DNA of 64,000 nt from an uncultured Thermoplasmata archaeon (GTDB lineage Archaea > Thermoplasmatota > Thermoplasmata > SG8-5). The stretch's first letter is position 1; each line of letters opens with the position of its first letter. The notes under the pieces were generated by a model. It saw only the letters and a list, made by a program, of their open reading frames with translations, was not told the DNA's origin and did no database searches. The translations under genes were made by a program, and so were the position numbers. Positions 3,080 to 30,040 of the stretch are shown here, piece after piece. Location: positions 92,002-156,001 of the forward strand of contig CAYHBA010000002.1 in the NCBI GenBank assembly GCA_964354755.1. Reading direction: 5' to 3'.

Positions 3080-3125
3080 ATGTTACCGGTTCAACAGATG
3101 GGGGAGGGTGATAAAAGGCTTCCGG

Positions 3126-3218
3126 CGAGTATTTTTCTTTTAAGCCTCGCTGCGCTGGCTCGCCCTCTAAAAGAAAAATATTCAGCAAATAAGAAAATTC
3201 GGGCTCGCCTGCTCGCTC
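3126..3218 (-). terminator. T-rich terminator-like element (repeat family 2, copy 1) just 3' of the GTPase gene
   Basis: Minus-sense reads aattttcttatttgctgaatatttttcttttagag. A second copy of about 90 nt lies at 21112-21199 and includes an identical 16-mer gagtatttttctttta. Confidence 0.45.
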
Positions 3219-9259: not shown

Positions 9260-9330
9260 GCCGAGGTAACATAGTGGCTATGTGGCGGACTGCAGATCCG
9301 CATACGGGTGTTCAAATCTCCCCCTCGGCT
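9260..9330 (+). tRNA. tRNA-Cys (anticodon GCA)
   Basis: Manual fold gives acceptor GCCGAGG/CCTCGGC, D-arm ACAT/ATGT, anticodon stem GCGGA/TCCGC with loop CTGCAGA, and T-arm GGGTG-TTCAAAT-CTCCC with one U-U mismatch. CCA is not encoded. Confidence 0.7.
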
Positions 9331-9379
9331 TTTCATTTCGCAATCTTTTTTATCCCGAGTTAATCATACCCTCCGGCAC

Positions 9380-10927
9380 ATGAGAGAAAAGGTTCTGAAA
9401 ATCCTCCTAGACCATGGCACGCTTATCGAGCCAGAAGCAGCCGATTTCATACTAAAGCAAGGAGATCCAGTGGGCTTTATTAATAATTTTCTAGAGGGCA
9501 GGGGCAACCAGCCCCTGATCCTTACGGTCGACGACCTCGTGCCGGCCGCATCATTGGGCAACCTCGACCGGCCTCCGGCCCCGGCTCAGGCAGTGCGCGA
9601 GAACCCCCAGACCCAGGGGACGCTGCAGACAGCCACTTCCGAAAATGGAGCGGTTGACGCTCCGCCCGGAAAGCTGGCCGGCGGCAAGACCGAACCGGGT
9701 TATCACATAATATCGGATGTGACAGGGTCAAGCACATGCAACGGTTCGATAGAGAACTTCACCCAGTACTTCAGGGACAGGTTCAGGGTGCTGCGCAGAA
9801 TCATACGCTCGCACGCAGAAATGGGGGCCTCCGTGAAGATAGCTGCCCTCGATGCACAGGACAGGGAGGCCAGAGTCATCGGCATGGTCATGGATGTAAA
9901 CAAGACCAAGAACGGTCATATCGGGCTGACGATCGAGGACGACACAGGGGAACTGTATGTTCTGATTCACAAAGACACAGAACTGGTCAAGGAAACATAC
10001 CTCAAGGACGAGGTGCTGGGCTTTACAGGGCGGCTCAGTTCCGGCCGGAGCGGAAACGGCTCGCCTGACAAAAAGGGGGGTATGTTCATTGCCTCGGCAA
10101 TGCGCAGGCCCGGCATCCCCGCGATAAGGGAGCAGCGCCGCTCGTCCGAAGATGCGGAGGTGGTGTTCATGTCCGACATACACGCAGGCAGCTCGCATTT
10201 CCTTGCCGAGCCCTGGTTAAGGTTCATGGAATGGCTCAATTCGCCCCAGGCTGCCAAGGTGGATTATATTGTGGTGGCGGGAGACCTGGTGGACGGCATA
10301 GGTGTGTATCCGAACCAGGAGGAAGAGCTACAGATTCATGACATATACATGCAGTACGGCGAGCTTGCAAGGCTCATGGCCCCCGTGCCGGAGCGCATCC
10401 GGGTATTCCTCCAGCCAGGAAACCACGACGCTGTGCGGCCGGCAGAACCGCAGCCCGCCATACAGGAAAAATTCAGGAAGGGTTTCGGGCCGAATTTCAC
10501 ATTCATAGGCAATCCCTGCCATTTTGCCCTGGCCGGCGTTGAGATACTGTCATACCACGGGAAGAGCATCGACGACCTTGTAGGCCAAGTGCCAGGAGTG
10601 ACCTATCTTGACCCGATACCGCCCATGCACGAGATGCTGAAACGGCGGCTTCTGACCGTATCCTACGGCGGAAAGACCCCTCTGGCCCCCGAGGCAAGGG
10701 ATTACATGGCAATCAATCCCCTCCCAGACATTCTGGTGACAGGCCACGTGCACAGGGCCGCGATTCACAGGACCAGCGGGACGACCCTCATCAATGCCTC
10801 GGCCTGGCAGTCCCAGACCCCTTTCCAGAAGACGCACAACTTCAACCCTGACCCGGCGAAGATAATTGTCGTCAACCTGAAGACGGGACGATGCAGGATG
10901 GTGGACTTCCTCAGTCCAGCAGAATAA
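9380..10927 (+). CDS. polB1: DNA polymerase II (PolD) small subunit DP1
   Basis: Calcineurin-like phosphoesterase motifs MSDIHAGS, GDLVDG and GNHDA are present, and the N-terminus MREKVLKILLDHG is DP1-like. The start was moved to 9380 so the gene does not overlap tRNA-Cys. Confidence 0.8.
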   Translation: MREKVLKILLDHGTLIEPEAADFILKQGDPVGFINNFLEGRGNQPLILTVDDLVPAASLGNLDRPPAPAQAVRENPQTQGTLQTATSENGAVDAPPGKLAGGKTEPGYHIISDVTGSSTCNGSIENFTQYFRDRFRVLRRIIRSHAEMGASVKIAALDAQDREARVIGMVMDVNKTKNGHIGLTIEDDTGELYVLIHKDTELVKETYLKDEVLGFTGRLSSGRSGNGSPDKKGGMFIASAMRRPGIPAIREQRRSSEDAEVVFMSDIHAGSSHFLAEPWLRFMEWLNSPQAAKVDYIVVAGDLVDGIGVYPNQEEELQIHDIYMQYGELARLMAPVPERIRVFLQPGNHDAVRPAEPQPAIQEKFRKGFGPNFTFIGNPCHFALAGVEILSYHGKSIDDLVGQVPGVTYLDPIPPMHEMLKRRLLTVSYGGKTPLAPEARDYMAINPLPDILVTGHVHRAAIHRTSGTTLINASAWQSQTPFQKTHNFNPDPAKIIVVNLKTGRCRMVDFLSPAE

Positions 10928-15617: not shown

Positions 15618-15809
15618 CTATAGCAATCACAATGAATGGCCGATATAAGGGATTATTTCAACATCATGGGCGGTTTTGTGGAGGATTTGATGCAAATCGT
15701 TGAAAGACAGGAACGAACCGCGAAACATGAGTCCACATCCCAACCGCACGAAAGTCCCAGACAAAGCCATCAACATACTTCACCTCGGGCACTGGCCCAA
15801 ATTATCGCA

Positions 15810-15818
15810 ATTAATATG
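15810..15818 (+). promoter_or_regulatory. TATA-box-like element upstream of tRNA-Leu
   Basis: ttaatatgt lies about 28 nt upstream of the tRNA 5' end. Confidence 0.4.
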
Positions 15819-15844
15819 TACGAATAGCATATTGTGCCCATTGT

Positions 15845-16053
15845 GCGAGGATAGCCAAGCCCGGCCAATTATGCTTACAGGCATCATTGCTTTGCAATGC
15901 AAGCTGAGTTCACAGGCCACGGCGATAGGAGCGGCCACACCTGGCCGCGACTAAGCCGATGACCGGATATCGGAGCCTGCAGGCATAGGTCATCGGCGAT
16001 AGACTCAAGATCTATTCCTTAGTGGTTCATCGGTTCGAATCCGATTCCTCGCA
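15845..16053 (+). tRNA. tRNA-Leu (anticodon CAA) with an intron of about 126 nt in the D-loop. Exons are 15845-15868 and 15995-16053.
   Basis: Acceptor GCGAGGA/TCCTCGC pairs 7 of 7. The Leu-type D-arm GCC-AAGCCCGGCCAA-[intron]-GGC is present. Anticodon arm is ATAGA-CTCAAGA-TCTAT, with a variable arm and T-arm ATCGG-TTCGAAT-CCGAT. The intron contains a 10-bp hairpin GCCGATGACC/GGTCATCGGC next to the 3' junction. Confidence 0.6.
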
Positions 16054-16430
16054 TATTATTTCCATAATCTCTTTGAGCATATGCTCGTCAGCACCGTTCC
16101 TTTCGCCGCAGCGAAAGGTATGCGCCCGGACGGGAAGTTTGAGAGAGACGAAACCGTGCGACCCATGCAAGAGCTAATAATATGGCACCCCGCCCTCTGC
16201 GCCGAATTGTGCGCAATTCGGCTTGCTCGCATCGATGTTGATAAACTGAAAGGAAGCTACGATGCTCGTACAGGCGGGGCTTGTTGCAGATAAACCGCCT
16301 TCATGCACGCCATGCGAAAGCGCACTCGCGGCCATATCGTTTCAAGACCCCGGGCTTACACCCGGGGCATGCTGGTGAGAAAGCGACGTGAATGGCGCTG
16401 GGTTGGCCGGCGCTCGTGCTGCGCCATCTA

Positions 16431-16440
16431 AACATTTATA
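16431..16440 (+). promoter_or_regulatory. BRE/TATA-like element upstream of tRNA-Val
   Basis: aacatttata lies about 30 nt upstream of the tRNA 5' end. Confidence 0.45.
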
Positions 16441-16469
16441 CACGATGGGCATTTCCCACAATACCCGAT

Positions 16470-16572
16470 GGGCCGGTGGTCTAGTGGTTCTGGTGCCGGG
16501 TTTTCCGACATCAACACAAATGACGTCGCCCTTACAAGGCGAAGATCGGCGGTTCAATTCCGCCTCGGCCCA
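16470..16572 (+). tRNA. tRNA-Val (anticodon UAC) with a 30-nt intron in the D-loop (16490-16519)
   Basis: Acceptor is GGGCCGG/TCGGCCC with a G-U at 7-66. D-arm is GTC-TAGTGGTT-[intron]-AT-GAC. Anticodon arm is TCGCC-CTTACAA-GGCGA, followed by a 5-nt variable loop and T-arm GGCGG-TTCAATT-CCGCC. Confidence 0.65.
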
Positions 16573-16845
16573 CTCTTTTTTCATTTTGTTATCATACGTG
16601 GGCCTCAGCGGAATTCACAACTTATGGTGGGATATGTTGGGGTCTTAAGTTGTGAACACAGCCGAATTCCTCTGGTGTCATATGCTGAATACGGAATTCG
16701 GCTTGGCCGCGAAATATGCTTCGATATAGCCAGGGTCTTAATTCGCGGCTTCCGCCCCGGCCCCTGTGCAACTTCCGATTGCGGCCTTTGTGATGCTAGA
16801 CTTCGGGATTTTGGTGGGGGGATAAGCCGGGGGGAAGTCGCTTTA

Positions 16846-18951
16846 TCATACGATTTTTAACTTCATCCTCCTCTTCCTCGCGCAGATTGGACACCAATGT
16901 TTCTGTTTTACACTCGAAGGTGTAGCTTTCCATATGTGGCCATCTGCACATTGCCAATCTAACTTTATATGGTTTCCAAAGTATTTTTCTGAAAGGCAAC
17001 GACCGCCATGTTCAGCAGCCATCTCCCGCATCTTTTCAATAGTAAGTCTCTTCGGTCCCATTGTCTTTCTCATGCATGTAGTACACCAATGACCCGCTCT
17101 GATGTTTTGAGGTGTAGCCCACCATTCATGGCCAAATTCACAGCGCCAGTGTAGGTTAGTGCTATTATTGACATACACATCAGATAGACACTCACCTTTC
17201 CTTTCCCTGGCAATTTCTCGCATCATCTCGATTGTCAGTTTCTTTGCATTGTCTGAGCACTGCCTGCACCAATTACCCTTTTTTACACTGCTTGGATTCA
17301 TCGAGAACTTGTGCCCAATTTTACACTGCCATTTCAATTTGACATTTGCTCCAAGATACCTATCGGAAAGGCATTCTCCTCCCTGTTCTTTAGCTAATTC
17401 TCTCATTTCTTCAATGGAACCAACATTGTGTCCACAATATGGGCACCAACTACCACGAATTACATTGCTCGGTGTTGCCTTCCAGGTATGTCCTTTAGAA
17501 CATTGCCATTCTAATTTGCGATATATGCCCCGATATTCTTTGGATAGACAAAGACCGCCATGTTTCCTTGCTACTTCCATCATCTCTTCAATTGTTCTGT
17601 TTCGACCATAGCATTTCGGGCACCACGAGCCCATCTGTTTGATAGAATAAGGGATTGCTTCCCAAACATGTCCTTTACTACATCTCCATTTTAATTTCTT
17701 ATCTGTTGAATAATAAATATCAGATAAGCACTCCCCCCCTCGTTCTTTAGCCAGTTGCTGCATTTCTTCCAATCGTTTCCTGGAAAACACATCGAAATCC
17801 AGGTAATTAATTGTTGAAAGGTCTACATTGATGCTAATTTCTCTTTTTTTACATTCTTGAGCAATATATTGGCCCATCTCCTTGTGCGAAACGTCGTAAG
17901 GCACTTCAATCAGAGTGACATGGTTCCTGGCACATATTGACCGTTTCCATTGATCTCGTTGTATCAATTCATGTAATTTATCCTCCCCATATATCGGACG
18001 TGTGTGTTGAGCCCCCTGATATTCAAATGCCAGCTTCAGGTCTTTGTTAAACCCATCCAATTCCATTTTTTGCGATGTTTCTAAATTTACTAACCACGAA
18101 GGCCGTACCTTCTTGAATTTCACTCCGAAAATAGCCTCAAACCAGCCTCGGCAGATATTTTCACTGAGTGTGTTTCTACATATTGGGCACCAATTACCTT
18201 TATTAATTTCGGCCCAAGGGGCTTCCCAATCATGACCCTCGCAGCATTTCCATTTTAATTTTGTATGTGCGTTTTCATATTCATCAGATAGGCATTCGCC
18301 ACCTCTTTTTTTCGCTTCATTCTTCATTTGTTCAAGTGTATGTCTCATATGGCCAGAGCATTGAAGACACCATCGGCCAGTTCTAATGTCTCTCGGAGTA
18401 GCCCACCAAGTATGGCCTTTTTTGCATTGCCATTGTAATTTTGAAGCATTCCCCCCATAGTCAACCGAAAGGCATTTACCACCTTTCGCTGCAGCATTTA
18501 TTTTCAGGTCTTCAATGGTTAGCCGTTTCTGTCCAGCACATTCTGGACACCAATGTCCATTTATTATTGCTCCTAGGCTTGTTTTCCAAATATGTCCTTC
18601 TTTACATTGCCATTTCAAATGCGTTTTACTATTAACATATTTTTCAGAGAGGCATTTACCCCCTTTATTGTGTGCTATCTCTTGCATATCCTTGATTGTT
18701 TTACAAAAATGTCCTGCACACTCTGGGCACCATGTTCCCATTCTTATATGATTAGGAACTGCCTTCCAGACATGTCCTTTGGCACATTGCCATGTTAGAT
18801 GGGTTTGACTATTGATATATGCCTCTGAGAGACATTTGCCTCCCCGTTCCTTTGCAAGGTTCTGCATATCTTCTATTGTGTACCTTATCCGAGCCATTAT
18901 ATCACTCAATTGCTCGTCTTCGACCCCTTTCATAATATTCTTTACATTCAC
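16846..18951 (-). CDS. Protein with nine tandem zinc-ribbon repeats (4 + 5) flanking a central PD-(D/E)xK / DUF559-like nuclease domain
   Basis: The repeat unit is about 58 aa, for example LTIEDM.A.ERGGKCLS..Y.....L.WQC..GH.W.A.P...R.G.WCP.C.G. The central segment MELDGFNKDLKLAFEYQGAQH resembles the catalytic core of restriction-endonuclease-fold (Vsr/DUF559) proteins. Low GC. Confidence 0.65.
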   Translation of the reverse strand: MNVKNIMKGVEDEQLSDIMARIRYTIEDMQNLAKERGGKCLSEAYINSQTHLTWQCAKGHVWKAVPNHIRMGTWCPECAGHFCKTIKDMQEIAHNKGGKCLSEKYVNSKTHLKWQCKEGHIWKTSLGAIINGHWCPECAGQKRLTIEDLKINAAAKGGKCLSVDYGGNASKLQWQCKKGHTWWATPRDIRTGRWCLQCSGHMRHTLEQMKNEAKKRGGECLSDEYENAHTKLKWKCCEGHDWEAPWAEINKGNWCPICRNTLSENICRGWFEAIFGVKFKKVRPSWLVNLETSQKMELDGFNKDLKLAFEYQGAQHTRPIYGEDKLHELIQRDQWKRSICARNHVTLIEVPYDVSHKEMGQYIAQECKKREISINVDLSTINYLDFDVFSRKRLEEMQQLAKERGGECLSDIYYSTDKKLKWRCSKGHVWEAIPYSIKQMGSWCPKCYGRNRTIEEMMEVARKHGGLCLSKEYRGIYRKLEWQCSKGHTWKATPSNVIRGSWCPYCGHNVGSIEEMRELAKEQGGECLSDRYLGANVKLKWQCKIGHKFSMNPSSVKKGNWCRQCSDNAKKLTIEMMREIARERKGECLSDVYVNNSTNLHWRCEFGHEWWATPQNIRAGHWCTTCMRKTMGPKRLTIEKMREMAAEHGGRCLSEKYFGNHIKLDWQCADGHIWKATPSSVKQKHWCPICARKRRMKLKIV

Positions 18952-19156
18952 TCAACGTATAATCATTTAAAGACTTCGGTATATTGGCCGCAAACGTATC
19001 TAATATAAAAAATAATAAAACTCTTTTTACCTTTGGGGTTAATATTCCCTTTATATCTTCATCATTTCCTGTCCAATTTTGTTTTACAGCATATGTTACT
19101 AGTTCTTTCATTAGTCTTTGAAATTCAGCTTCCCGAAACATGCCATTCAACCTCAC
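18902..19156 (-). CDS. Hypothetical 84-aa protein; overlaps the start of the zinc-ribbon gene by 50 nt
   Basis: ORF only, no recognisable domain. Possibly co-transcribed with the gene at 16846. Confidence 0.25.
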   Translation of the reverse strand: MRLNGMFREAEFQRLMKELVTYAVKQNWTGNDEDIKGILTPKVKRVLLFFILDTFAANIPKSLNDYTLSECKEYYERGRRRAIE

Positions 19157-19209
19157 ACTTAATATCCATAATGATTTCAGAATGTATAATGGTTTACCGA
19201 AAGACTAAT

Positions 19210-19233
19210 AAAGAGAAAAAGAGGGACGATTTC
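19210..19233 (-). terminator. Shared T-rich terminator-like motif
   Basis: Minus-sense reads gaaatcgtccctctttttctcttt just 3' of the gene ending at 19269. Variants of the same motif occur at 23272-23297 and 26101-26123. Confidence 0.45.
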
Positions 19234-19268
19234 CTGAACAATACACATTTTTAATTGAGAATACAGCA

Positions 19269-19814
19269 TTATAGAACTATTCTTACCCAACATGAACCAA
19301 AACACACTGGGCATCTGCCAGTGCCATTGCAATATGAGCAAGGTTTTTTCAGAATACTACCAATTTTACCAGTCCCGTGGCACTGCGAACACATTCCTGA
19401 AGGCCTACCTGAAACCAATCCATATGGGCCTATTGGATCACAAGCAATGCAAGTGGCAACTCTCTGCCTCTGATGCTCTCTGCATAAATTACGACCTCCA
19501 TCATTAACGATTCTGCCCATGTTTGCCGCACTCTGGAATAGACCCTGTTCTCGCGAATTTAGTTTACTGCAAAAATAACATTCCTGTTTCTCGCAAATTT
19601 CACACTTGAATAAACGATTACCTTCTGTCAGAGTGTTACCACAATTTGGACATAATGGTAGACTGCTAACTGCCCCAGTGTGATGAACCTGCATACTATT
19701 TTCTTCTATCAGAACTTTACCTCCGCAATGACTGCAATATCCAATTTTTAAAGTATCTGGGAATTGAAGATCCGCACCACAATTTGGACATCTTGCAGGA
19801 ATTAAGTTCACCAT
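19269..19814 (-). CDS. Cys-rich zinc-finger protein with several CxxC/CxxCxGxG-type ribbons; start trimmed to the Met at 19814
   Basis: Contains CPNCGADL, CSHCGG, CPNCGNT, CEICEKQECYFC, CSQCHGTGK and CSYCNGTGRCPVCFGSC. Confidence 0.5.
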   Translation of the reverse strand: MVNLIPARCPNCGADLQFPDTLKIGYCSHCGGKVLIEENSMQVHHTGAVSSLPLCPNCGNTLTEGNRLFKCEICEKQECYFCSKLNSREQGLFQSAANMGRIVNDGGRNLCREHQRQRVATCIACDPIGPYGLVSGRPSGMCSQCHGTGKIGSILKKPCSYCNGTGRCPVCFGSCWVRIVL

Positions 19815-19835
19815 AACATTCCCTTTGTTAATGTT

Positions 19836-19860
19836 AAAGCCCGGTAATAAGGCTTTCGTC
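19836..19860 (-). promoter_or_regulatory. Shared promoter-like motif: a TTATTA TATA-like element sits inside the inverted repeat AAAGCC...GGCTTT
   Basis: Minus-sense reads gacgaaagccttattaccgggcttt about 38 nt upstream of the ATG at 19814. The same motif occurs upstream of at least four other island genes. Confidence 0.5.
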
Positions 19861-19917
19861 AGGAGGCAGGGATCCTCCGGCAGGGCATCACGCCGGCCAG
19901 GGGCTTCAGGATACATT

Positions 19918-20355
19918 CTACCATATGTAATGTTTAACATTATTTCGACAATTAATGCAATATCTTGTATCTGGTGCAAGATTGGTTTTGCATCGGTGAC
20001 ATTCAAAATAACCTTTTTCTCTAATCATTTCTATTCGATTTAAATTATATAATCCCTCTAAGAATAATAAGATTGAACATAAAATAAGGATTATCCACGT
20101 ATATACACGAGTATGTATTAGTTCATTCCATCCTTTAATAAGGGGTATAACAATTATTATCATCCATACAATGATTGGAGAAAAAATTGAGGTGTAAGTA
20201 TACCATTTTAATTTTCGAGGTATTGCGTTGTTTTGAAGAATGTATGTTTTTTGAACATGCCCGCATTTGTCACATTTTGATGTCGAAATGGGATTTGCAC
20301 AGTAACCGCACCAGTTATGATGGAAATCACTTCTTTGAGGAATAATTGTTGACAT
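19918..20355 (-). CDS. Zinc-ribbon membrane protein, hypothetical
   Basis: N-terminal C-x2-C...C-x2-C ribbon. C-terminal C-x2-C...C-x2-C ribbon. Two or three TM helices lie between them. Confidence 0.4.
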   Translation of the reverse strand: MSTIIPQRSDFHHNWCGYCANPISTSKCDKCGHVQKTYILQNNAIPRKLKWYTYTSIFSPIIVWMIIIVIPLIKGWNELIHTRVYTWIILILCSILLFLEGLYNLNRIEMIREKGYFECHRCKTNLAPDTRYCINCRNNVKHYIW

Positions 20356-20370
20356 GCGCCTTTCGCCCCT

Positions 20371-20406
20371 CAAGTGAATGCGAAAGCCCGGTAATAAGGC
20401 TTTCGT
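20371..20406 (-). promoter_or_regulatory. Shared promoter-like motif copy upstream of the gene starting at 20355
   Basis: Minus-sense reads acgaaagccttattaccgggctttcgcattcacttg, followed by gaggggcgaaaggcgc and then ATG. Confidence 0.5.
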
Positions 20407-20450
20407 AAGCCAGCCCAGTGGTAATTTCGCCTTGGTCTTTGATCTTCGAC

Positions 20451-20972
20451 TTAATCCAGTGTGAAGGTTGTAGGTTCATCCATCCGAAGTAAATCCTCCC
20501 ATGAATATTCCCAAATGACTACCGAATAAGTCGTATGCTGACCAAGGTTAGAAACAACGATGAAATCATTTTTATTAACCTCATTCTCCTGGAAATTCAT
20601 GTCTGTGTACTCTGCTGATGCGCCTCCTGTTGCACTCATCGTAACAGTTGATGCGCCCGGTGGGGTCTGTAAATATATTTCCACAACATCAGATTGATTC
20701 GAAGTATTGGTGATAATCAATTTTATATCACATGGCATTGGATTATAACTGGGTGGTGGGTGTCCAGCTAATATCTCCATAAAAATGATTTTCACACTCG
20801 TTGAACTTTGAACATCGAATTGTAGTTTGGCATGAGGGGATGTGTCTTTGGGTGGTCCGAATGGACCTATACCCAATGCCATTGCGAGAGTTAGCGGAAT
20901 TAAAACTGCCCCGGCTACTACAATGAAAATAATTTCACCTTTGTAATTCTCCCAATTCCTTTTGGATTTCAT
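20451..20972 (-). CDS. Archaeal type IV pilin-like protein (class III signal peptide); paralog of the protein at 10964-11506
   Basis: KG then EIIFIVVAGAVLIPLTLAMAL. The shared C-terminal domain is PPGASTVTMSATGGASAEYTDMNF. Confidence 0.65.
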   Translation of the reverse strand: MKSKRNWENYKGEIIFIVVAGAVLIPLTLAMALGIGPFGPPKDTSPHAKLQFDVQSSTSVKIIFMEILAGHPPPSYNPMPCDIKLIITNTSNQSDVVEIYLQTPPGASTVTMSATGGASAEYTDMNFQENEVNKNDFIVVSNLGQHTTYSVVIWEYSWEDLLRMDEPTTFTLD

Positions 20973-21028
20973 TGCATATGAATTGATTTGAATCTATATA
21001 TAGTTATTATTGACATGTCAATAATGAT

Positions 21029-21055
21029 CCTGTAACAAGGCTTTCGTTTGTTACC
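21029..21055 (-). promoter_or_regulatory. Shared promoter-like motif variant upstream of the pilin-like gene
   Basis: cctgtaacaaggctttcgtttgttacc lies about 60 nt upstream of the start at 20972. Confidence 0.35.
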
Positions 21056-21111
21056 AATCCACAGTCCAAACAGCATCCACTGGGACATGAATCCAAAATA
21101 TCCGAGTATTT

Positions 21112-21199
21112 TTCTTTTAAATTTTCTCCGCTGGCTCGGGCTCTAAAGAAAAATATTCAGCAAAGAAGAAACTCGCCACTCGCCTGCTCGAAAATTCAT
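21112..21199 (-). terminator. T-rich terminator-like element (repeat family 2, copy 2) 3' of the surface-protein gene
   Basis: About 80% identical over 90 nt to the element at 3126-3218. Minus-sense is T-rich. Confidence 0.45.
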
Positions 21200-23215
21200 T
21201 TACCAATTAATTGTCCATATCGTATCCGCAACCACGTGTACCCAGTACCCTTCGCCCGGCTTCATGATGTATGTCGGGCCGGCCTCGGATATTAGGTATG
21301 GTGAGGCAGGGTCGAAGACCTCCACCCGATTCGCCCCTGTACCCCAGAGGGCGTTGGCTACTGTGGTATTATTGTTCAAGGTGGGGAAGCTGACCAGGTT
21401 CCAACCCGCGTAAAGAATGATGCTGGTGGATTGCGGTTCCGCCCCGAAAACTGTCAAGTTGCAGGCCACCGTGGCGTGTAGCCATAAACCCATCGTGTTG
21501 TCGATATAGGTGAGGTCGTTGGCTGTGCCTCCTATTCGGTATGACTTCCAAGGATCCATTTTATCTGTTGGGTCGCACCATTTCACGACATCCCATTTTC
21601 CAGAAATGGAGGACAGTACATTCTCTATTGAGGTACTGGTCATTTCGAAAGGCACAGAGACGAGGTTCCAACCAGCTATAAGTTCGATGGTGCAGACCTG
21701 TGGCAAGGGTTGCCACCGGAACAACGGGTAAGTAATACCCTCCCTCATCCACCAGATGTTTTCGAAGTCCCAGCTTACGTTAGTAAATGTGCTCTGGGTT
21801 TTCATCACGACCGTTGTTTCTCCGGTAGCGTTGCCCGCGGTGCTGTTTTGCCCGCTGGTTTCGACGTCCCAGAAGTTGCCAGTCATCTCATAGTTCCCGC
21901 CTGTGAATATGTCTCCGACAAAGCCTTTGTTCGTTGGATTTGAACCACCATAATAAATCACCTGGCCCGTGGAATAACAGTTGATGATCTTGCCTTGATA
22001 ATTTCTCGCGGCAAACCCACCGAAATACTCATTTGTCCCAGATGAACGTGTCACTGTTCCAGTGGCGTATGAATTTCTAATAGTTCCTAGATAATTCTGA
22101 CTCACTAGTCCGCCAACATACCATACACTTCCACTTACGTTTCCAGTAGCATACGATTTATTAACCGTTCCCCTATTCTGTCCTATTAAACCACCAACAT
22201 TGGATTCTCCAGTTGTGGCTCCAGTGGCATAACAAGCCCTCACTGAGCCCATATTTTCTCCTATTAAGCCACCTATATTATTGAAAGAACCAGTCACTGT
22301 TCCAATGGCGAATGAGTCAATTACAGCGCACCCCCCTAATTCGTTGTAGCCCACGAGTCCTCCCACAATAGAACCACCAATAACATTTCCCATGGCATGT
22401 GAGTTTAAAACCAGGTCTCGGTTTACTCCCACGAGCCCGCCGACACTACCACCGGTACCGCTCACATTTACAATGGCATATGAGTTGTTCACCGTGTCAT
22501 AGTTCGCTCCTATAAGCCCACCGATTCGATGTTTTCCATTCACGGTGCCTGTAGCATGTGAGTTGGCCACAATACCATAGCTGTAACCCACAAGCCCGCC
22601 AATATAATAACTACCAGTTCCACTAACGGTACCTATGGCATATGAATTTGTTATCGTACCCTGATAGTTTTGACCTACGAGCCCGCCAACATACTCGTAT
22701 CCACTCACGGTTCCAGTGCAGTATGAGTTGGTCACTGTATCACAGTTAAATCCCACCAGGCCGCCAACATTGGATCTTCCAGTGATATTGACTTCAATGA
22801 GGCCAACGTTCTTTACGAAACCCCCACTATCAATATATCCGAGGAGTCCTTGATAATTCGTACCCGTTCGGTTGATGTGCAGTCCAGTGATGGTGAAGTT
22901 CTGGCCGTCAAGACTACCGGTAAACCGATTTGGATTTGTTCCAACCGCCACGAAACCTGCGCCACTGTTCCAGTTTATAGTATCGTGCGCGTCAATGTCA
23001 TTCCCCAATGCATAATGTGCCGTTAAGTTCAAACTCATATTTTGCAGTTCCCACACATTCTCAATTATATACGGGTCCTCGACCGTTCCGGAACCCCCAG
23101 CTAAAGCGGTTACTGGTACATCTGAACTCACAACCTCATCCACACATATTCCCACAAACATGCCGCTGAGAAGCATCAGGGCAACGATATAAATTAAGAT
23201 TGACTTCTTCCACAT
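21200..23215 (-). CDS. Secreted surface protein with GLUG-motif beta-helix repeats (VGGLVG.N.G.I.NSYATG) and a duplicated C-terminal beta domain
   Basis: Signal peptide MWKKSILIYIVALMLLSG. More than 12 GGLVG/GGLIG repeats. The C-terminal GWNLVS.P...EAGPTYIMKPGEGYWVHV domain occurs twice. Confidence 0.6.
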   Translation of the reverse strand: MWKKSILIYIVALMLLSGMFVGICVDEVVSSDVPVTALAGGSGTVEDPYIIENVWELQNMSLNLTAHYALGNDIDAHDTINWNSGAGFVAVGTNPNRFTGSLDGQNFTITGLHINRTGTNYQGLLGYIDSGGFVKNVGLIEVNITGRSNVGGLVGFNCDTVTNSYCTGTVSGYEYVGGLVGQNYQGTITNSYAIGTVSGTGSYYIGGLVGYSYGIVANSHATGTVNGKHRIGGLIGANYDTVNNSYAIVNVSGTGGSVGGLVGVNRDLVLNSHAMGNVIGGSIVGGLVGYNELGGCAVIDSFAIGTVTGSFNNIGGLIGENMGSVRACYATGATTGESNVGGLIGQNRGTVNKSYATGNVSGSVWYVGGLVSQNYLGTIRNSYATGTVTRSSGTNEYFGGFAARNYQGKIINCYSTGQVIYYGGSNPTNKGFVGDIFTGGNYEMTGNFWDVETSGQNSTAGNATGETTVVMKTQSTFTNVSWDFENIWWMREGITYPLFRWQPLPQVCTIELIAGWNLVSVPFEMTSTSIENVLSSISGKWDVVKWCDPTDKMDPWKSYRIGGTANDLTYIDNTMGLWLHATVACNLTVFGAEPQSTSIILYAGWNLVSFPTLNNNTTVANALWGTGANRVEVFDPASPYLISEAGPTYIMKPGEGYWVHVVADTIWTINW

Positions 23216-23387
23216 CGTGGATAATAGGAACGTTCTGCTAAATTAACCTTTCCTATGTGATTTATAGTTCATAAAAGAGAAAAAGATGGCCGGTTTCCCC
23301 GCATTCCGAGATTTTAATTCACGTATGAACTAACCTTTAGCCAGCAGAGTCAGATTCAATTCCGCCTTTAATGGACGAATCCAGATA

Positions 23388-25733
23388 CTACCAATCCACA
23401 GTCCATATTGTATCCGTTGGGACATGTACCCAGTACCCTTCGCCCGGCTTCATGATGTATGTCGGGCCGGCCTCCTTGATGTAAGGCGAAACAGAGTCGA
23501 ACGCCTCCACCCTATCCGCTCCCGTGCCCGAGAGAGCCTCTGCGACTGTCATTTCCGAATTCCGGGCCGGGTATCCGACCATGTTCCATCCTGTGTGCAG
23601 AGATATGCTTGTGGATGCGGGCATAATTCCCTCGCCTGCGGTCAGCACCCCGTCCCCGCCGTTGTCGGTGATGTGGAGCCAGATGCCCATGGTATTGTCG
23701 ATCTCCGGCATGTCGTTTGACGATGCCTGCCCTTTCTTATTGAATGATTTCCAGGGGTCCGCAGCATCCTGGGTGTCGAACCACATCGCCCGGTCCCAGG
23801 TCGTGCCGCCGTCTCCATACAATACATCGTTGAACACGGCAGTAATTCTTGTATGGACAGTCAATGGTACGGAAACGAAGGTCCAATAGCCGGTGCCGTC
23901 TCTTGACCGGTTGCTATCTGTATTCACGTCGAAAGTCTTCCAGTTGAACGGCCCTGCTTCCGGCGCAGTGCCGTTGGCAGGAATGCCGACATCATCGGCT
24001 CCGCCCTTCGCGTTCGCGATCCAGTAGAATTTACTCGGCTTTGGGCAGGGATTGGATTCGGGGGTCCAGTCGAACGAGCCATCCACACTTGCATCTGTCC
24101 CGATACAGTTCCAGTTGTCTCCGTGGTTCGTAGAATAAAACAGGTCGATTTCTGTCGGGGTTTCTGTCCAGTTATAGGTGATTGTAATGATTGGGTCGTG
24201 GCCGGCGCCCTGGGGGCCGGTGGCGGTGGCTGTTGAATTTGAATAAACCGTGACGTTTAAAGTATCAATTGAATACAAACCAGTTGTACTTGTAACATTT
24301 AAAGTCACAGTATAGACCCCTATAGATTCATATTTATGAGTTGGAGTAGAACCTATTGCGTCAATATCATTCGTTGGATTACCATCTTGATTAGTATCAA
24401 TATTAGCATTGAAATCCCAACTATAACTAAGTACTTCTGCATTTTTTGCATTATCCCATTGCCAGAGTAGATTTGAACCACCTGCTGTGGTGAACACGTA
24501 TAAAGTTCCATTTGAAGTTGCGCCAGCGTAATAATTTCCATCAAAAGAGCATGAGATATGATTGACAATTCCATTAGTATAAAAAATAGATTCTGGTGTT
24601 CCATTTGCTGGCGTGAATTGATATATTCCTCCATCTTGATTACCGCCAAAGATGTATTGACCATCAGTAGCCATATCTAATGACATACATGCCATACTGG
24701 TCACATGGGTCCAAATTGGAGAAGAACTTGAATTACTGAAAAGTCGAAACCCGTGAGAGGTAGAGGCTCCCCTAGTCTTATACTCTGCAGTGGCAATATA
24801 TTGACCATTATCTGCTGTAACCATCCCGATATGTTTCCCCAAAGATTCTGCAACCCATATACGATTTCCATTGTTATTAAATAACTGTGTATGTTGTAAA
24901 TCGCCTTGTCCCGCTGCAATTTTATTACCATAATAATCTAAAGAAATAGTATAAATTGGACAAAAATAATCAGAATTTTCAGGGAGTATTTTAAAAATGA
25001 AACCTTCTGAAATACCATAATACCGAATTTCATACCAGAATGAGCCTGCGGCAAAGTGAGTACCGTCACCCGAAAATCGAACACTCAATACGGACTGAGG
25101 GAAATCAAAAATATTTATTGGTGATCCTGAATTTGTTTCAAAGAGATAAACTTTACCTACTTTTTCCATTTGAGCTGAAATAGAGAGAAATGTTCCTAGA
25201 GCAATATAATTTCCATCACGAGTCATATCGAAGGCTCTCCGACTTGTTCCATATATGGGATAATTGGTTTGATATGTCCATATCGGTGTACTTTGATTGG
25301 TATTAAAAAAGGAAACATAACCTCTCGATTCCCAAGTATTTGATGGGTCATCATTTTGTGCGGTTGCAAGGTATGTGCCATTTTCAGAAAGAACAACAGC
25401 TACAACTGTTTTTTCAGTGTTAAATGTCCAAAGAGGCTCACTGTTGTTAAGATGAAATAAAGTAATATTTGTTCCCCATCCAATAACAATATAATTACCA
25501 TCCCCAGATATATCTACTACATTAATCGCTTGTCTGTAATTTGGATCATAAGATCCAGTTCCATTGAACTGAACGATTTCATTTACATCTACAAATTGAT
25601 CTGGACCAGCATCAGCTATTGGTGGCAATAAATTATTTATTATATTTTTATCTATGGTTGAAGAAATAACAGTGGGGCTGATGAGAAGAATAACAATTAC
25701 TATTGGTAAGAAAAATGTTCTCATACTTTTCAC
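23388..25733 (-). CDS. Secreted surface protein with beta-propeller repeats, a PKD domain and a C-terminal domain shared with the protein at 21200-23215
   Basis: Signal peptide is present. Propeller blades are YIATA- and YFAAG-type. The PKD-like segment reads TPTHKYESIGVYTVTLNVTSTTG. The last roughly 45 aa are nearly identical to the neighbour at 21200, with a 50-nt identical stretch in the DNA. Confidence 0.6.
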   Translation of the reverse strand: MKSMRTFFLPIVIVILLISPTVISSTIDKNIINNLLPPIADAGPDQFVDVNEIVQFNGTGSYDPNYRQAINVVDISGDGNYIVIGWGTNITLFHLNNSEPLWTFNTEKTVVAVVLSENGTYLATAQNDDPSNTWESRGYVSFFNTNQSTPIWTYQTNYPIYGTSRRAFDMTRDGNYIALGTFLSISAQMEKVGKVYLFETNSGSPINIFDFPQSVLSVRFSGDGTHFAAGSFWYEIRYYGISEGFIFKILPENSDYFCPIYTISLDYYGNKIAAGQGDLQHTQLFNNNGNRIWVAESLGKHIGMVTADNGQYIATAEYKTRGASTSHGFRLFSNSSSSPIWTHVTSMACMSLDMATDGQYIFGGNQDGGIYQFTPANGTPESIFYTNGIVNHISCSFDGNYYAGATSNGTLYVFTTAGGSNLLWQWDNAKNAEVLSYSWDFNANIDTNQDGNPTNDIDAIGSTPTHKYESIGVYTVTLNVTSTTGLYSIDTLNVTVYSNSTATATGPQGAGHDPIITITYNWTETPTEIDLFYSTNHGDNWNCIGTDASVDGSFDWTPESNPCPKPSKFYWIANAKGGADDVGIPANGTAPEAGPFNWKTFDVNTDSNRSRDGTGYWTFVSVPLTVHTRITAVFNDVLYGDGGTTWDRAMWFDTQDAADPWKSFNKKGQASSNDMPEIDNTMGIWLHITDNGGDGVLTAGEGIMPASTSISLHTGWNMVGYPARNSEMTVAEALSGTGADRVEAFDSVSPYIKEAGPTYIMKPGEGYWVHVPTDTIWTVDW

Positions 25734-26049
25734 TTCACCTATAATATGAATGATTATGCATCCTTATAATGTTTTCGTGTAAGCTTACTAAAATTAGATA
25801 ATAAATGGTCATTTTTAGACATTTTAATATGCTGGCACCTGACCACCATTTAGTAAAAATACAAGTTCTTCTCCTATCTGTAATGTAGTAAGTGAACTTC
25901 TGTTTCCAATTAAACGAAATTCTAATCCCCCACAACCTAATCTATTTCTAAACGACTTTAAAATCTTTTCTATTTACTTACGATGACCGCCAAACACTTT
26001 GTTTTTTATGCACATTAATCGGGCATACAGCCCTAGCCAGTAGTCGCTT

Positions 26050-26091
26050 GCCCCAAGTGAATGCGAAAACTCAGTATTAAGGGTTTCGTCG
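26050..26091 (-). promoter_or_regulatory. Shared promoter-like motif variant, about 320 nt upstream of the start at 25733 across an AT-rich leader
   Basis: ccccaagtgaatgcgaaaactcagtattaagggtttcgtcg is related to the motif at 20371-20406. Confidence 0.35.
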
Positions 26092-26142
26092 ATAAGAAGA
26101 AAGAGAAAAAGGGGGACGATTTCGTCGCCTTCCATTTCGCCC

Positions 26143-26673
26143 CTAGTACTTCCTAAAATCCAGGAACGTCATCCCCTTCCTGGCCCTCTCCCTCTCCTCC
26201 TTCAGATGCTGCTGCAATCCGACCTTCATCACCCGTTCGTGGTGCTTCAGAACCACCGGGTACCTGCCGCGCTGGTATTCCGTCCTCTTGCAGGTCGGGA
26301 ACGTCTCGCACAGAAGGCAGCTCTTCAGCTTCCGCGCTTTCTTGCATTTCATGACCTCGCACCACGGCTCCTTGATGTTCTGGCATCCGGGGCACTTCAT
26401 CTTGGAGAGCCACACAAGCCCTTTGTCCATGTCCCCGAAGTCGAAGTCCACCGAATCCTGGGCCCACAGGCAGTTGCCTTTGGTTGTGCGGGAGAGCTCT
26501 GTGGCCAGTTCGGCCACCCTTCCGTTACCGGTGGGGCACATCTCGCAGAACACGCCGCAGACACCGTATGTATATTCTTGTTTAGGGGTTTTCTTCATGG
26601 CAATCGCTCTCCGCAGTGCTGGCAGAAATCTCTCGCGCATTTGAGGTATCTGCCTTGCCTGGATAGGACCCAT
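26143..26673 (-). CDS. Cys-rich protein, DUF3795-like, possible metal or Fe-S binding
   Basis: Contains CGVFCEMCP, CPGCQ, CEVMKC and CLLCETFPTC. The start could be the internal Met at 26598. Confidence 0.4.
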   Translation of the reverse strand: MGPIQARQIPQMRERFLPALRRAIAMKKTPKQEYTYGVCGVFCEMCPTGNGRVAELATELSRTTKGNCLWAQDSVDFDFGDMDKGLVWLSKMKCPGCQNIKEPWCEVMKCKKARKLKSCLLCETFPTCKRTEYQRGRYPVVLKHHERVMKVGLQQHLKEERERARKGMTFLDFRKY

Positions 26674-26777
26674 CGTAAATCAAGTTTCTTTTTCTTGGGT
26701 GTTTTTTTTGGTAATTGTTTGCCGCACCATGGACATGTATTCGAATCGCATTGCATGTCGCATTCTTCCTTCATCGC

Positions 26778-26813
26778 GTGTGAATGTTAAGTTCTCGTAA
26801 TAAGGTTTTCGTC
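26778..26813 (-). promoter_or_regulatory. Shared promoter-like motif variant upstream of the Cys-rich protein gene
   Basis: gtgtgaatgttaagttctcgtaataaggttttcgtc. Confidence 0.35.
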
Positions 26814-26974: not shown

Positions 26975-29900
26975 TCAACCCAATTCACGCCTGACAATCT
27001 CGACCTTGTAACCGAGTTTGAGCTCCTCGAATGTGCGCAGGGCTTTCCCCAGCATATCCTTGGCTGCAGGAATCCCCTTTTTCTTCATGGCCCGCCCGTA
27101 CTCGAGATAGGTCTCAGCCAGCTCCAGTTTTATCTTCGCGGACGTGAGGACCGTAATCGAGGTCTTGAAATGGTCTTCCGCCTCGGGCCAATTCCCGCGC
27201 CCTGCCTCTATCATCCCCCAGAATCTGTGGGAGATGCCTTCGCCCTCCTTGACGTCCAGCTCCTTCGCCAGTTCAATGGTTTTCTTAACGAATTCCTCGG
27301 CCTCGTCGGACTTCCCCGTCTTAATCAGCAGTTCTCCTTTGGCCTGCAGGATATCGACCATCAGCCTTTTGTTGCCCATCTCCAATGTGGCCTTCTCCGC
27401 TGCCTCTATATTGGCTCTCGCCCCTTCGAAATCGCCGGTCTGGAGCTGAACAAGGGACATGTTGAGCTCCATCATCGCCTCACCAATTTTGTCCCCCAAC
27501 TTCGTAAAGATGTCGAGTGCCCTCCTGTGGAATTCCAGCGACTTTGTATGATCTCCTCGGGTATGGTAAATGACTGCCAGGTTGTTCAGCGTGCTTCCCA
27601 TGCCGCGTGGATGTCCGAGTCTTTGGAAAACTGCGTGGCACCTCTCGTAATTGTCATGAGCCCTGTCGTAATCGCTCATGGATTTGTACACGATCCCCAG
27701 GTTGTTCAGGGCGACGCCGATGGATAATGTGTCCCCCAGCTTCTCGAAGGTCTTCAGGCTGCGCTCGAACACCTCCAGAGCTTCGGCATACCGGTCCCTG
27801 TCCGCCAGGATATGCCCGATGCTGTTGAGCGCGATTCCGGTTCCCCTGAGGTAGCCGATCCGCTCGAACTCCTCCAAAGCTTTATGGAAATTCACGAGTC
27901 CGCGATCGTAATCGCCGATGTCTACGTATAGCTGCCCCATCCTGTGGAGCACATCCGCGACGTCCTTCTCGGTCCCGCTGAGTTTCTGGAATATCTCCAG
28001 AGCCCTATTCTCTTTGGATATGGCCTCTTCGTACAATCCTTTATGTTCCTGGACAGCGCCGATTGCAGACAGTATCCTGGCGAATTCTACCCCTTCCCCA
28101 GCGGCGACCAGCACCCTCGCCTTCTCAAGCTCGTCGGCCACCCTGTCGTATTCCCCTCTCGTCGCATATATGGAGGATACCTTCCTATGAACCCTGGCTA
28201 TCACTTCCGGGTCGTCGCTGAGGTCCTTGACCCTCTCAAAGGCAGTCTTCGCCTCGTCGAGCCTGCCTGTGATTTCGTAAACTTCTCCCATTTCCTCCAG
28301 CAGCCTCGCGAGCTCCGCCCCCCGTTTCCGCCCATCCATTTCCATGAGCTCAAGCGCGTAGTTGCTGTACCGCAGGGTTTCCTTGTTCGCATATTGGGCC
28401 TTTGCAAGCTCGATTGCCCTCCTGAGGTTCGGCAAGGCCTTGTTCGCATCCCTGGCCATGTAGAAATGGTATCCGGCTTCGGCGACAACCTCGTCTGATG
28501 CGCCGTAGAGGTCCGTGATAGAATCACCCACCATCCCGTGGTACTCCCTTCTCAGCTCTCCGGGCAGGCCGCTGTAAAGCACTTCCCGTATCTTCACATG
28601 GCTGAAGGCGTAATTCCTCTCCATGGAGACAATAAGTCCGTGAGACCTCTCTATCTCGCTGAGGTTCTTCAGCAGCTCGATCTTTTTCACCTCAGCCACT
28701 TTACTCAAAACATCCGACGTGAACACGTCGCCGATGACCGAAGCCGGCTCCAGGATGAGCATCTGGTCTTTCGGTAGCCTCGCGAGCCTCCTGGATATCA
28801 CATCGTGGATTTTCACGGGGAGGTCGATGGTGTCCGGCCTTTTTGTTAGGCTCCAGGCGCCGTCCTTGTGGACCAGCGCCCCCTCCCCTTTCAATAAATT
28901 GATCACTTCGACTGCGAAGAGAGGGTTCCCCTGCGTTTCCCTCCAAAGGAAATCCACGAACTCGTCTCTGCCATCTACTTTGCCCAGGGTCGCGCCGACC
29001 AGCCCGGTCACAGCATCCCTCCCGAGGTTCCGCAGCTCGACCCGTTCCAGCAAGCCCTCGCCGCTCATGAGCTGTATGGCCTCCTTCAGCTGGTGCATCT
29101 TGCCGTCCCATGACGCCAGTATGTCCTCGGCCCTGTAGGTTGCAAGCATGAAGAGCCTTGAAGCCCTAGTGTTCCTGGAGATGTAATGCAGCAATGCCAG
29201 CGTCGACGGGTCTGCCCACTGGAGGTCGTCTATGAAGAGCAGAATCGGGCGCGCCTTGGTCTCCCTCTCCAATCCCTTCAAGACATTCTCGAAGATGCTG
29301 TTCTGCTTCGATTTGGGGTCCCCCTTCGCCCAGTCTATGCCGTCGAACCTCTCCGAGTCGAACATCTCCTTCAACGAGTCCTTGGCTCCTGTGAATTCGT
29401 CCACCAGTCCATCGAAATGCACTAACTTCCCGCCAAACCTGGCCTCCAGTTCCGCGAGAGTTTGCTGCAGATCGCCAAGCAGCGCCTCGTTCTCCCTCCC
29501 CTTGTAAATAGCCGCCAGGCTCGCGTACCGCCCGTGAATGCAGGAAATGTTGAAATCTCCGTAGCCGAGCCTGGACACATCCCCCTCGGGAAGCCTCCCC
29601 ATCTGTTTCATCGTGTCCTTGATGAACTCGTTGACTGCGGTGAGCATTCCGGAGAAAATGTCGATGTCTATGCCGCTTCCCTCCCGCTCTTGCTTCGAAA
29701 GGACGATGCCGGTCTGCGCGATGAGTAAAACTGTCTCGAGCCTCGGCGGTACCTCCAGGGTCACGAGGTGCTCCAGCCCTCCCGAAGCCAGCAGCTCCCT
29801 CATGGGCAAGAACGGCGTCATGCATCTGCTGAGGCACCATCCTCTCATCACCTTGAACCCCATCGAAGAAGCATTATGGATGCACTCCTCTGCGAGCCTT

Positions 29901-30040
29901 GTCTTGCCCACACCTGCTTCCCCAGCGATGAAGATGGTCGAGCCCCTGCCTGCCATCGCGTTGGTCAGGGATTGGTTGAGCTGGTTCAATTCCATATCTC
30001 GCCCGATAAGTTCCGGCTGTTGCAGGGCTGATTCTTCCAT
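26975..30040 (-). CDS. STAND-type ATPase with C-terminal TPR repeats and a Roadblock/LC7-like domain inserted between Walker A and Walker B
   Basis: N-terminus ELIGRDMEL. Walker A FIAGEAGVGKTRL. Walker B LLFIDDLQWAD lies about 220 aa later. The insert at aa 95-205, DIDIFSGMLTAVNEFIKD...VSRLGYGDFNISCIHGRYASLAAIYKG...ELEARFG, aligns with the modules of the giant protein. More than 10 TPR units follow. Confidence 0.75.
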   Translation of the reverse strand: MEESALQQPELIGRDMELNQLNQSLTNAMAGRGSTIFIAGEAGVGKTRLAEECIHNASSMGFKVMRGWCLSRCMTPFLPMRELLASGGLEHLVTLEVPPRLETVLLIAQTGIVLSKQEREGSGIDIDIFSGMLTAVNEFIKDTMKQMGRLPEGDVSRLGYGDFNISCIHGRYASLAAIYKGRENEALLGDLQQTLAELEARFGGKLVHFDGLVDEFTGAKDSLKEMFDSERFDGIDWAKGDPKSKQNSIFENVLKGLERETKARPILLFIDDLQWADPSTLALLHYISRNTRASRLFMLATYRAEDILASWDGKMHQLKEAIQLMSGEGLLERVELRNLGRDAVTGLVGATLGKVDGRDEFVDFLWRETQGNPLFAVEVINLLKGEGALVHKDGAWSLTKRPDTIDLPVKIHDVISRRLARLPKDQMLILEPASVIGDVFTSDVLSKVAEVKKIELLKNLSEIERSHGLIVSMERNYAFSHVKIREVLYSGLPGELRREYHGMVGDSITDLYGASDEVVAEAGYHFYMARDANKALPNLRRAIELAKAQYANKETLRYSNYALELMEMDGRKRGAELARLLEEMGEVYEITGRLDEAKTAFERVKDLSDDPEVIARVHRKVSSIYATRGEYDRVADELEKARVLVAAGEGVEFARILSAIGAVQEHKGLYEEAISKENRALEIFQKLSGTEKDVADVLHRMGQLYVDIGDYDRGLVNFHKALEEFERIGYLRGTGIALNSIGHILADRDRYAEALEVFERSLKTFEKLGDTLSIGVALNNLGIVYKSMSDYDRAHDNYERCHAVFQRLGHPRGMGSTLNNLAVIYHTRGDHTKSLEFHRRALDIFTKLGDKIGEAMMELNMSLVQLQTGDFEGARANIEAAEKATLEMGNKRLMVDILQAKGELLIKTGKSDEAEEFVKKTIELAKELDVKEGEGISHRFWGMIEAGRGNWPEAEDHFKTSITVLTSAKIKLELAETYLEYGRAMKKKGIPAAKDMLGKALRTFEELKLGYKVEIVRRELG

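Follow-up and report, generated by a model that had tools for sequence, protein, structure and literature searches.

BHB introns in the D-loop of pre-tRNAs are spliced in other archaea (PMC4090602, PMC5829648, PMC3241643), and 20/21 is among the listed non-canonical archaeal intron sites (PMC4090602). In the Thermoproteales and other archaea, introns at 20/21, 22/23, 25/26, 59/60 and further sites are of the same class as those described here, being short and protein-spliced with a BHB that can lie anywhere in the tRNA (PMC4090602). Like the present introns, they are found in some close relatives and are absent in others (PMC4090602). In the crenarchaeon A. pernix, the D-loop BHB intron of pre-tRNA-Thr2(UGU) is removed by EndA alone, without guide RNA or modifications (PMC3241643); A. 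pernix has a broad-specificity (alpha-beta)2 EndA carrying a Crenarchaea-specific loop, whereas the present host belongs to the Thermoplasmata.

Like the tRNA-Val intron of this study, the 20b/21 intron in the pre-tRNA-Glu(UUC) of M. kandleri is euryarchaeal and sits within the D-loop's 3' half, just before A21 (PMC5829648). As predicted for the Val intron, it has a relaxed HBh' motif with one well-formed bulge, between the central and inner helices (PMC5829648). The two cases differ in tRNA and lineage, Glu in the Methanopyri and Val in the Thermoplasmata order SG8-5. The M. kandleri Glu gene also contains a canonical 37/38 intron and its EndA has an (alpha-beta)2 architecture, while the Val gene has a single intron. 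Maturation in vivo was reported for M. kandleri (PMC5829648).

MAGs UBA280, UBA147 and SG8-5 were assigned to the order SG8-5, non-methanogenic Thermoplasmata basal to Methanomassiliicoccales (bioRxiv 10.1101/2020.03.09.984617). The text of that SG8-5 genomics preprint mentions neither tRNA nor introns (bioRxiv 10.1101/2020.03.09.984617), and no report of tRNA introns in Methanomassiliicoccales or Thermoplasmata was found in the literature searched. Here we describe a locus of the order SG8-5 that is very probably a functional tRNA-Val(UAC) gene with a 30-nt, BHB-type, protein-spliced intron inserted into its D-loop between U20a and A21. The intron type itself is already well known; the Val intron represents it in a new tRNA and a new lineage, where off-position introns are apparently undescribed.

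Identification of the interrupted tRNA-Val gene

The gene lies at 16470-16572 on the + strand of the 64-kb stretch of DNA that was analysed (the window), and its sequence is GGGCCGGTGGTCTAGTGGTT / CTGGTGCCGGGTTTTCCGACATCAACACAA / ATGACGTCGCCCTTACAAGGCGAAGATCGGCGGTTCAATTCCGCCTCGGCCCA (5' exon, intron and 3' exon). When the 30 nt of CTGGTGCCGGGTTTTCCGACATCAACACAA (16490-16519) were deleted, ARAGORN called a 73-nt tRNA-Val(tac) with a normal cloverleaf, the D-arm of which is GUC(U)-AGUGGUUA-(U)GAC. The 3' end is encoded without CCA, and the exact intron sequence has a copy number of 1 in the window. The features of the locus are listed in Table 1.

Table 1. Coordinates of the tRNA-Val(UAC) gene, its predicted splicing and expression signals, and the companion tRNA-Leu(CAA) gene in the window.
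Feature	Position	Strand	Description
BRE/TATA-like element AAACATTTATA	16430-16440	+	11-mer, putative promoter; end 30 nt upstream of mature 5' end
5' exon	16470-16489	+	acceptor 5' strand, U8, G9, D-stem 5' strand, D-loop to U20a
Central BHB helix H, exon strand GUGG	16484-16487	+	exon nt 15-18, i.e. G15 U16 G18 G19 of the tRNA
5' 3-nt bulge UU|C	16488-16490	+	predicted cut after 16489
Intron	16490-16519	+	30 nt between U20a (16489) and A21 (16520), D-loop
Inner hairpin h'	16491-16513	+	intron nt 2-24 (23 nt): 5 bp, C.A mismatch, 3 bp, GUUUU loop
Central BHB helix H, intron strand ACAC	16514-16517	+	intron nt 25-28
3' 3-nt bulge AA|A21	16518-16520	+	predicted cut after 16519
3' exon	16520-16572	+	A21, D-stem 3' strand, anticodon arm, variable loop, T-arm, acceptor 3' strand, discriminator A
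Anticodon TAC (Val)	16533-16535	+	ARAGORN, spliced sequence
Oligo-T run	16576-16581	+	six T, 4 nt past discriminator; likely transcription stop
tRNA-Leu(CAA)	15845-16053	+	125-nt D-loop intron at 15869-15993, site A21/C22

Neither standard tool detects the gene in its interrupted form. Over the whole window, the sole call of ARAGORN in default mode was a tRNA-Cys at 9260-9330, and Rfam at gathering score returned the same single tRNA. At a permissive threshold the unspliced gene gave only a partial match to the Rfam tRNA model (RF00005), covering 16520-16565 at 25.5 bits, below the gathering score of 29; a permissive Rfam search over 15780-16800 gave nothing beyond partial tRNA matches and noise. 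Standard annotation thus misses this essential tRNA, and genomes of the lineage will look as if they lacked tRNA-Val(UAC) and tRNA-Leu(CAA), which distorts estimates of completeness and decoding.

An earlier sequence-only reading had proposed a tRNA-Val(UAC) whose 30-nt D-loop intron occupies 16490-16519 and whose removal leaves a 73-nt tRNA. Identical intronless genes, the BHB geometry and covariation, all described below, bear out the intron and its boundaries; the Val(tac) call and the 69.4-bit Rfam score of the identical sequence do the same for the product. Its statement that the D-stem has no partner unless the 30 nt are removed does not hold. In the predicted fold, GAC at 16522-16524 pairs with GUC at 16479-16481 across the insert, and what the insert interrupts is the D-loop.

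Comparison with uninterrupted and interrupted homologues

We scanned one genome per species with the 24-mer of the D-stem and anticodon arm, which gave at least 119 loci. Among the loci listed, at least about 100 are uninterrupted tRNA-Val(UAC) genes. Those of Thermoplasmata archaeon CSMAG_1396 (L066) and of an uncultured Thermoplasmata archaeon (L116) are identical to the predicted spliced product at 73 of 73 positions, and this sequence scores 69.4 bits against Rfam tRNA. The 5' exon of the window corresponds base for base to the first 20 nt of both genes, and the intron boundaries leave no room for sliding, as the flanking bases differ. Judged by these identical genes and their Rfam score, the 30 nt are an insertion, at 16490-16519, into an otherwise intact known tRNA sequence, far beyond what chance would give.

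Five genome loci among the matches listed carry an insert at the same place. It measures 30 nt in UBA280 (L072), where 26 of the 30 positions are identical to the window's, 31 nt in UBA147 (L022), 93 nt in SG8-5 (L098), 34 nt in L018 and 13 nt in L010. A metagenome scan, in which the exon sequence was fixed and a gap of 8-38 nt was required, added L121, L122/L125, L123, L124, L126 and L127. The site is thus occupied by ten distinct introns that measure 13-34 nt and mostly have unrelated sequences. In every homologue ARAGORN called Val(tac) once the insert was removed, and the Val exons show no decay.

All ten introns contain a 4-nt complement of exon nt 15-18 placed exactly 2 nt before the 3' junction, and the 3' bulge reads A[A/G/C]|A in 10 of 10. 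The inner helix starts 1 nt past the 5' junction in these introns, with a loop in its stead in L010. Bases on the two strands vary together. The second pair of helix H occurs as U-A, U-G and C-G among the ten, and where the exon has C16 instead of U16 (L010, L124 and L121) the partner in the intron is G. Six of the ten introns have a G-C pair where the window has its G.A mismatch, the C.A mismatch of the window's inner hairpin is a C-G pair in UBA280, and in the homologues both strands of h' have changed at its first three pairs. In an alignment of the junction-proximal parts of the introns (alignment A2), 94% of the cells were paired and 15 cells had changed on both sides, values reached by 0 of 500 shuffles; when the register was slid by 1-3 columns, just 25-69% of the cells were paired. 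In L022, L127, L122, L124 and L010 the central helix is part of the MFE fold itself, located between D-stem and inner hairpin, with an extra pair shortening the 5' bulge in three of them.

The 93-nt insert of SG8-5 gave no clean BHB at any junction register tried. In this gene (L098, ~3004-3170 oriented) the insert resembles two tandem BHB-like units (...GTCACCGCAA|A..., ...ACGCAG|A). The tRNA-Val(UAC) of L121 (metagenome contig Ga0180009_10110701) has its D-loop intron and is also interrupted a second time, directly behind CTTACAAGGC within the anticodon stem's 3' strand, and may be a two-intron gene.

Predicted structure of the splice motif

The spacing of a BHB, with 3-nt bulges on opposite strands and a 4-bp central helix, is exact in the window and in the 10 homologues, one of the four central pairs of the window being G.A. 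In the window, helix H consists of G-C, U-A and G-C and this mismatch, that is, three Watson-Crick pairs. The 5' bulge is flanked by the inner helix h', a hairpin of 5 + 3 bp, for which pair probabilities are 0.79-0.99 in the window fold. Two things predict the 5' cut after 16489, namely the canonical BHB rule of cleavage after the second bulge nucleotide and the junction that the intronless genes define.

The D-stem (G10-C25, U11-A24 and C12-G23) forms across the insert in the predicted fold with a probability of 0.86. It is the outer helix beside the 3' bulge, set off from it by U13/A14 and by U22. An alternative 2-bp outer register, A14-U22/U13-G23, costs 5.8 kcal/mol more than keeping the D-stem. 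The exon positions of the outer helix are invariant among homologues, hence there is no covariation signal on either register. Because of the G.A mismatch in the central helix and the offset of the D-stem, the 3' side of the predicted motif appears relaxed rather than strict, and the motif is probably best described as HBh'-like. The three Watson-Crick pairs with a G.A in the modelled central helix, the shifted MFE pairing described below, the weak outer helix, the misfit of the SG8-5 insert and, as set out further below, the searches that found no EndA gene and the poor cutting of a D-loop intron by an alpha'2 enzyme were all counted against our reading of the locus.

Alternative interpretations of the locus

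The shifted MFE pairing bears on the position of the splice sites. For the window the BHB conformation has an energy of -41.2 kcal/mol, 1.5 above the MFE of -42.7 kcal/mol, which pairs the same two segments in a shifted central helix (16-49, 17-48, 18-46 and 19-45) with probabilities of ~0.47-0.67; pairs in the BHB register have a probability of ~0.12. If the shifted pairing set the boundaries, a slightly different D-loop would result, for example a 75-nt product with GGUUC|AAUGAC. We regard this as very unlikely, since the boundaries at 16490-16519 reproduce the uninterrupted genes of relatives base for base, the register supported by comparison is that of the BHB (94% of cells form pairs, compared with 25-69% when the register is slid), and five homologues form the same central-helix pairs in their own MFE folds. 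A different alternative starts from ARAGORN -i, which for the window returned a long-arm tRNA: the 103 nt would be a Leu(caa) that is either not spliced or spliced in another way, with a 5-nt intron in the anticodon loop and the Val anticodon arm serving as variable arm. The same mode gave the homologues as Arg, Val(cac), Cys, Ser, Gly, His, Val(gac) and Cys, the proposed anticodon stem contains mismatches, and the true tRNA-Leu(CAA) lies 417 nt upstream. A class II tRNA with an anticodon-loop intron is effectively refuted and its probability close to nil: nine homologues would have eight identities, while splicing in the D-loop yields Val(tac) for all of them.

The locus could also be a pseudogene, its D-loop broken by a 30-nt insertion while another genomic copy decodes the valine codon read by UAC. 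The unspliced sequence does fail standard tRNA detection, and a second copy could lie elsewhere in the genome, of which 64 kb are visible here. However, the interrupted gene persists in UBA280, UBA147, SG8-5 and the metagenomic relatives with perfect conservation of its exons and with a conserved promoter motif, and its BHB helices are maintained by compensatory changes; none of this is expected of a decaying gene. A pseudogene therefore seems highly improbable, and a functional tRNA-Val(UAC) gene with a D-loop intron is the reading followed below.

Putative expression signals and splicing pathway

The 11-mer AAACATTTATA occurs at the same distance from the gene in L072, L022, L098 and L126, where the surrounding upstream sequence is divergent, and is probably the archaeal TATA promoter of tRNA-Val. 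By analogy with known archaeal termination, the oligo-T run downstream is likely to act as transcription stop. We suggest that transcription of a pre-tRNA is driven by the conserved AAACATTTATA element and stops at the oligo-T run. In this pre-tRNA, G15-G19 of the D-loop would pair with intron nt 25-28, two nucleotides short of the intron's 3' end, and the remaining intron would fold as a hairpin, so that each splice site would lie in a 3-nt bulge, the two bulges being on opposite strands and separated by 4 bp. The archaeal splicing endonuclease EndA would then cut after 16489 and after 16519, an RtcB-type ligase would join the exons, and the CCA-adding enzyme would complete the 73-nt tRNA. 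The sequences show the exact intron boundaries, the BHB geometry and its conservation with compensatory changes, and the conservation of the promoter motif and the exons, while transcription, cleavage by EndA, ligation and the loss of the 30 nt from the mature tRNA are predicted.

A Tpt1/KptA RNA 2'-phosphotransferase homologue is encoded at 49645-50400 (+) of the window (Pfam PF01885, E = 3e-26). Tpt1/KptA finishes tRNA splicing in fungi and plants; archaea use RtcB ligation.

Distribution in the order SG8-5

Genes identified in the window by Pfam include the PolD small subunit (9308-10927), an archaeal pilin, TFIIB, L7Ae, TiaS and a heliorhodopsin. Blocks of the window align with UBA280 at 73-94% nucleotide identity over several kilobases, and alignment with UBA147 and SG8-5 is weaker. 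By sequence similarity the closest relatives of the window appear to be UBA280, UBA147 and SG8-5, with UBA280 the nearest.

The interrupted Val gene is retained at the corresponding locus in these three genomes and in the metagenomic relatives, and the intron is absent from Thermoplasmata that have identical exons with different flanks (L066, L116 and L019). The intron-bearing Val gene and its promoter motif are therefore common to the order SG8-5. In UBA280, UBA147 and SG8-5, the Val cassette (16271-16711 in the window, composed of ~200 nt of upstream sequence, the gene and ~140 nt of downstream sequence) lies on the other side of tRNA-Leu in the opposite orientation, so the window carries a small local rearrangement.

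The companion tRNA-Leu(CAA) gene

When spliced, the tRNA-Leu gene upstream of tRNA-Val gives an 84-nt Leu(caa) (ARAGORN). UBA147 (L022), which is without the D-loop intron, has the predicted junction GGCCAA|CGGCG exactly. The Leu intron also has a BHB: GGCC pairs with GGTC in helix H, the bulges are AA|U and AU|C, and the inner helix is UAUGC/GCAUA. BHB elements are thus found in both D-loop introns of the window, and two of its tRNAs do carry such introns, as the sequence-only reading had stated. Contrary to that reading, the positions are adjacent rather than the same, since the Leu site (21/22) is one nucleotide 3' of the Val site (20a/21). That reading had called the position unusual. It is non-canonical, but such sites were already documented at 20/21 (PMC4090602) and at 20b/21 in M. 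kandleri (PMC5829648).

A common insertion mechanism, also proposed there, finds no support as stated. In local alignment the Val and Leu introns score 6 and shuffles average 6.5, so that their similarity is no more than expected by chance. The window contains no further copy of the Val intron at up to 3 mismatches, and a common origin of the two introns is likewise unsupported. In Thermoproteales, near-identical introns occur in different tRNAs, a pattern of transposition (PMC4090602), whereas the Val and Leu introns of the window are dissimilar.

In sequence the 125-nt Leu intron and its UBA280 counterpart are 93.6% identical, as against 73-82% for the flanking genes. This conservation suggests that a functional RNA may lie inside the intron, which had no match in Rfam. 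Its core, CGGCGATAGGAGCGGCCACACCTGGCCGCGACTAAGCC, is also kept in SG8-5 and repeats the first nine bases of the Leu 3' exon (CGGCGATAG).

In SG8-5 (L098) the tRNA-Leu(CAA) gene has, in addition to a D-loop intron, a T-loop intron of ~130 nt at 59/60, located ~200-330 nt after GCGAGGATAGCC, for which a clean BHB centre, UUCG x UGAA, can be read from the sequence. The Leu gene of UBA147 (L022 positions 1-30) has the start of the same T-loop insert and lacks the D-loop intron; those of the window and UBA280 have the D-loop intron only. Given the Val intron and the D-loop and T-loop introns of Leu, which differ between relatives, non-canonical tRNA introns appear to recur in the order SG8-5 and to vary among close relatives. 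D-loop and T-loop BHB introns are thereby extended to a Thermoplasmata order basal to Methanomassiliicoccales, and their presence and absence among close relatives provides a natural series for the study of intron gain and loss.

Substrate range of the splicing endonuclease

These introns raise the question of the substrate range of the lineage's splicing endonuclease. Pfam scans, which covered 51 of the 52 ORFs in the window that reach 90 aa, detected neither EndA nor RtcB. A phmmer search with M. jannaschii EndA, a query verified against PDB 1A79, found no homologue among all ORFs of the window and of the 126 fetched loci. EndA of T. acidophilum is an alpha'2 enzyme of narrow specificity (PMC6379350), and the D-loop BHB intron of A. 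pernix is barely cut in vitro by the alpha'2 enzyme from A. fulgidus (PMC3241643). If the order SG8-5 inherited an alpha'2 EndA, that enzyme must cope with D-loop and T-loop sites. One possibility, which we put forward only tentatively, is that the order (SG8-5, UBA147, UBA280 and the window) has accumulated several non-canonical introns (Val 20a/21, Leu 21/22 and Leu 59/60), gained or lost between close relatives, that need an EndA of broadened specificity, e.g. one with an undescribed loop insertion or a different subunit architecture. The need would follow from the best-studied Thermoplasmata enzyme being a narrow alpha'2 form and from the poor activity of alpha'2 on D-loop introns in vitro. 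If true, this would be a case of independent co-evolution of endonuclease and intron diversity outside TACK and DPANN.

Sequence adjoining the tRNA-Val gene

Downstream of tRNA-Val, a conserved non-coding element (16596-16711) contains three GAATTC-centred arms (~16610, 16664 and 16694), for which alternative pairing is possible. UBA280 and UBA147 retain the element and L126 retains part of it; in UBA280 one of its arm pairs shows a compensatory change. It had no match in Rfam.

A low-GC block (16712-26146; 37-49% GC vs ~55% in the rest of the window) starts ~140 nt past tRNA-Val and is absent from UBA280. On the - strand it encodes a DUF4379/CapR zinc-finger protein (16846-18951), a GLUG-repeat protein (21200-23215) and a beta-propeller/PKD protein (23388-25733). 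No integrase domain was found, and near-copies of the tRNA-Val 3' end are 15 nt only (16750-16764 and 27176-27190). With such short near-copies and no integrase, tRNA-Val was not established as the attachment site of an integrated element, nor was a link to the intron.

A motif of ~39 nt (...GCGAAAGCCCGGTAATAAGGCTTTCGT) recurs within the low-GC block and at its edge, inside or close to intergenic regions, at 19821-19859, 20368-20406, 21029-21047, 26051-26089 and 26774-26812, and may be a shared promoter or leader. Further downstream, the heliorhodopsin gene (30157-30924, - strand; PF18761, E = 5e-101) adjoins genes for large AAA/TPR (MalT-like) proteins at 26975-30040 and 34749-37700.
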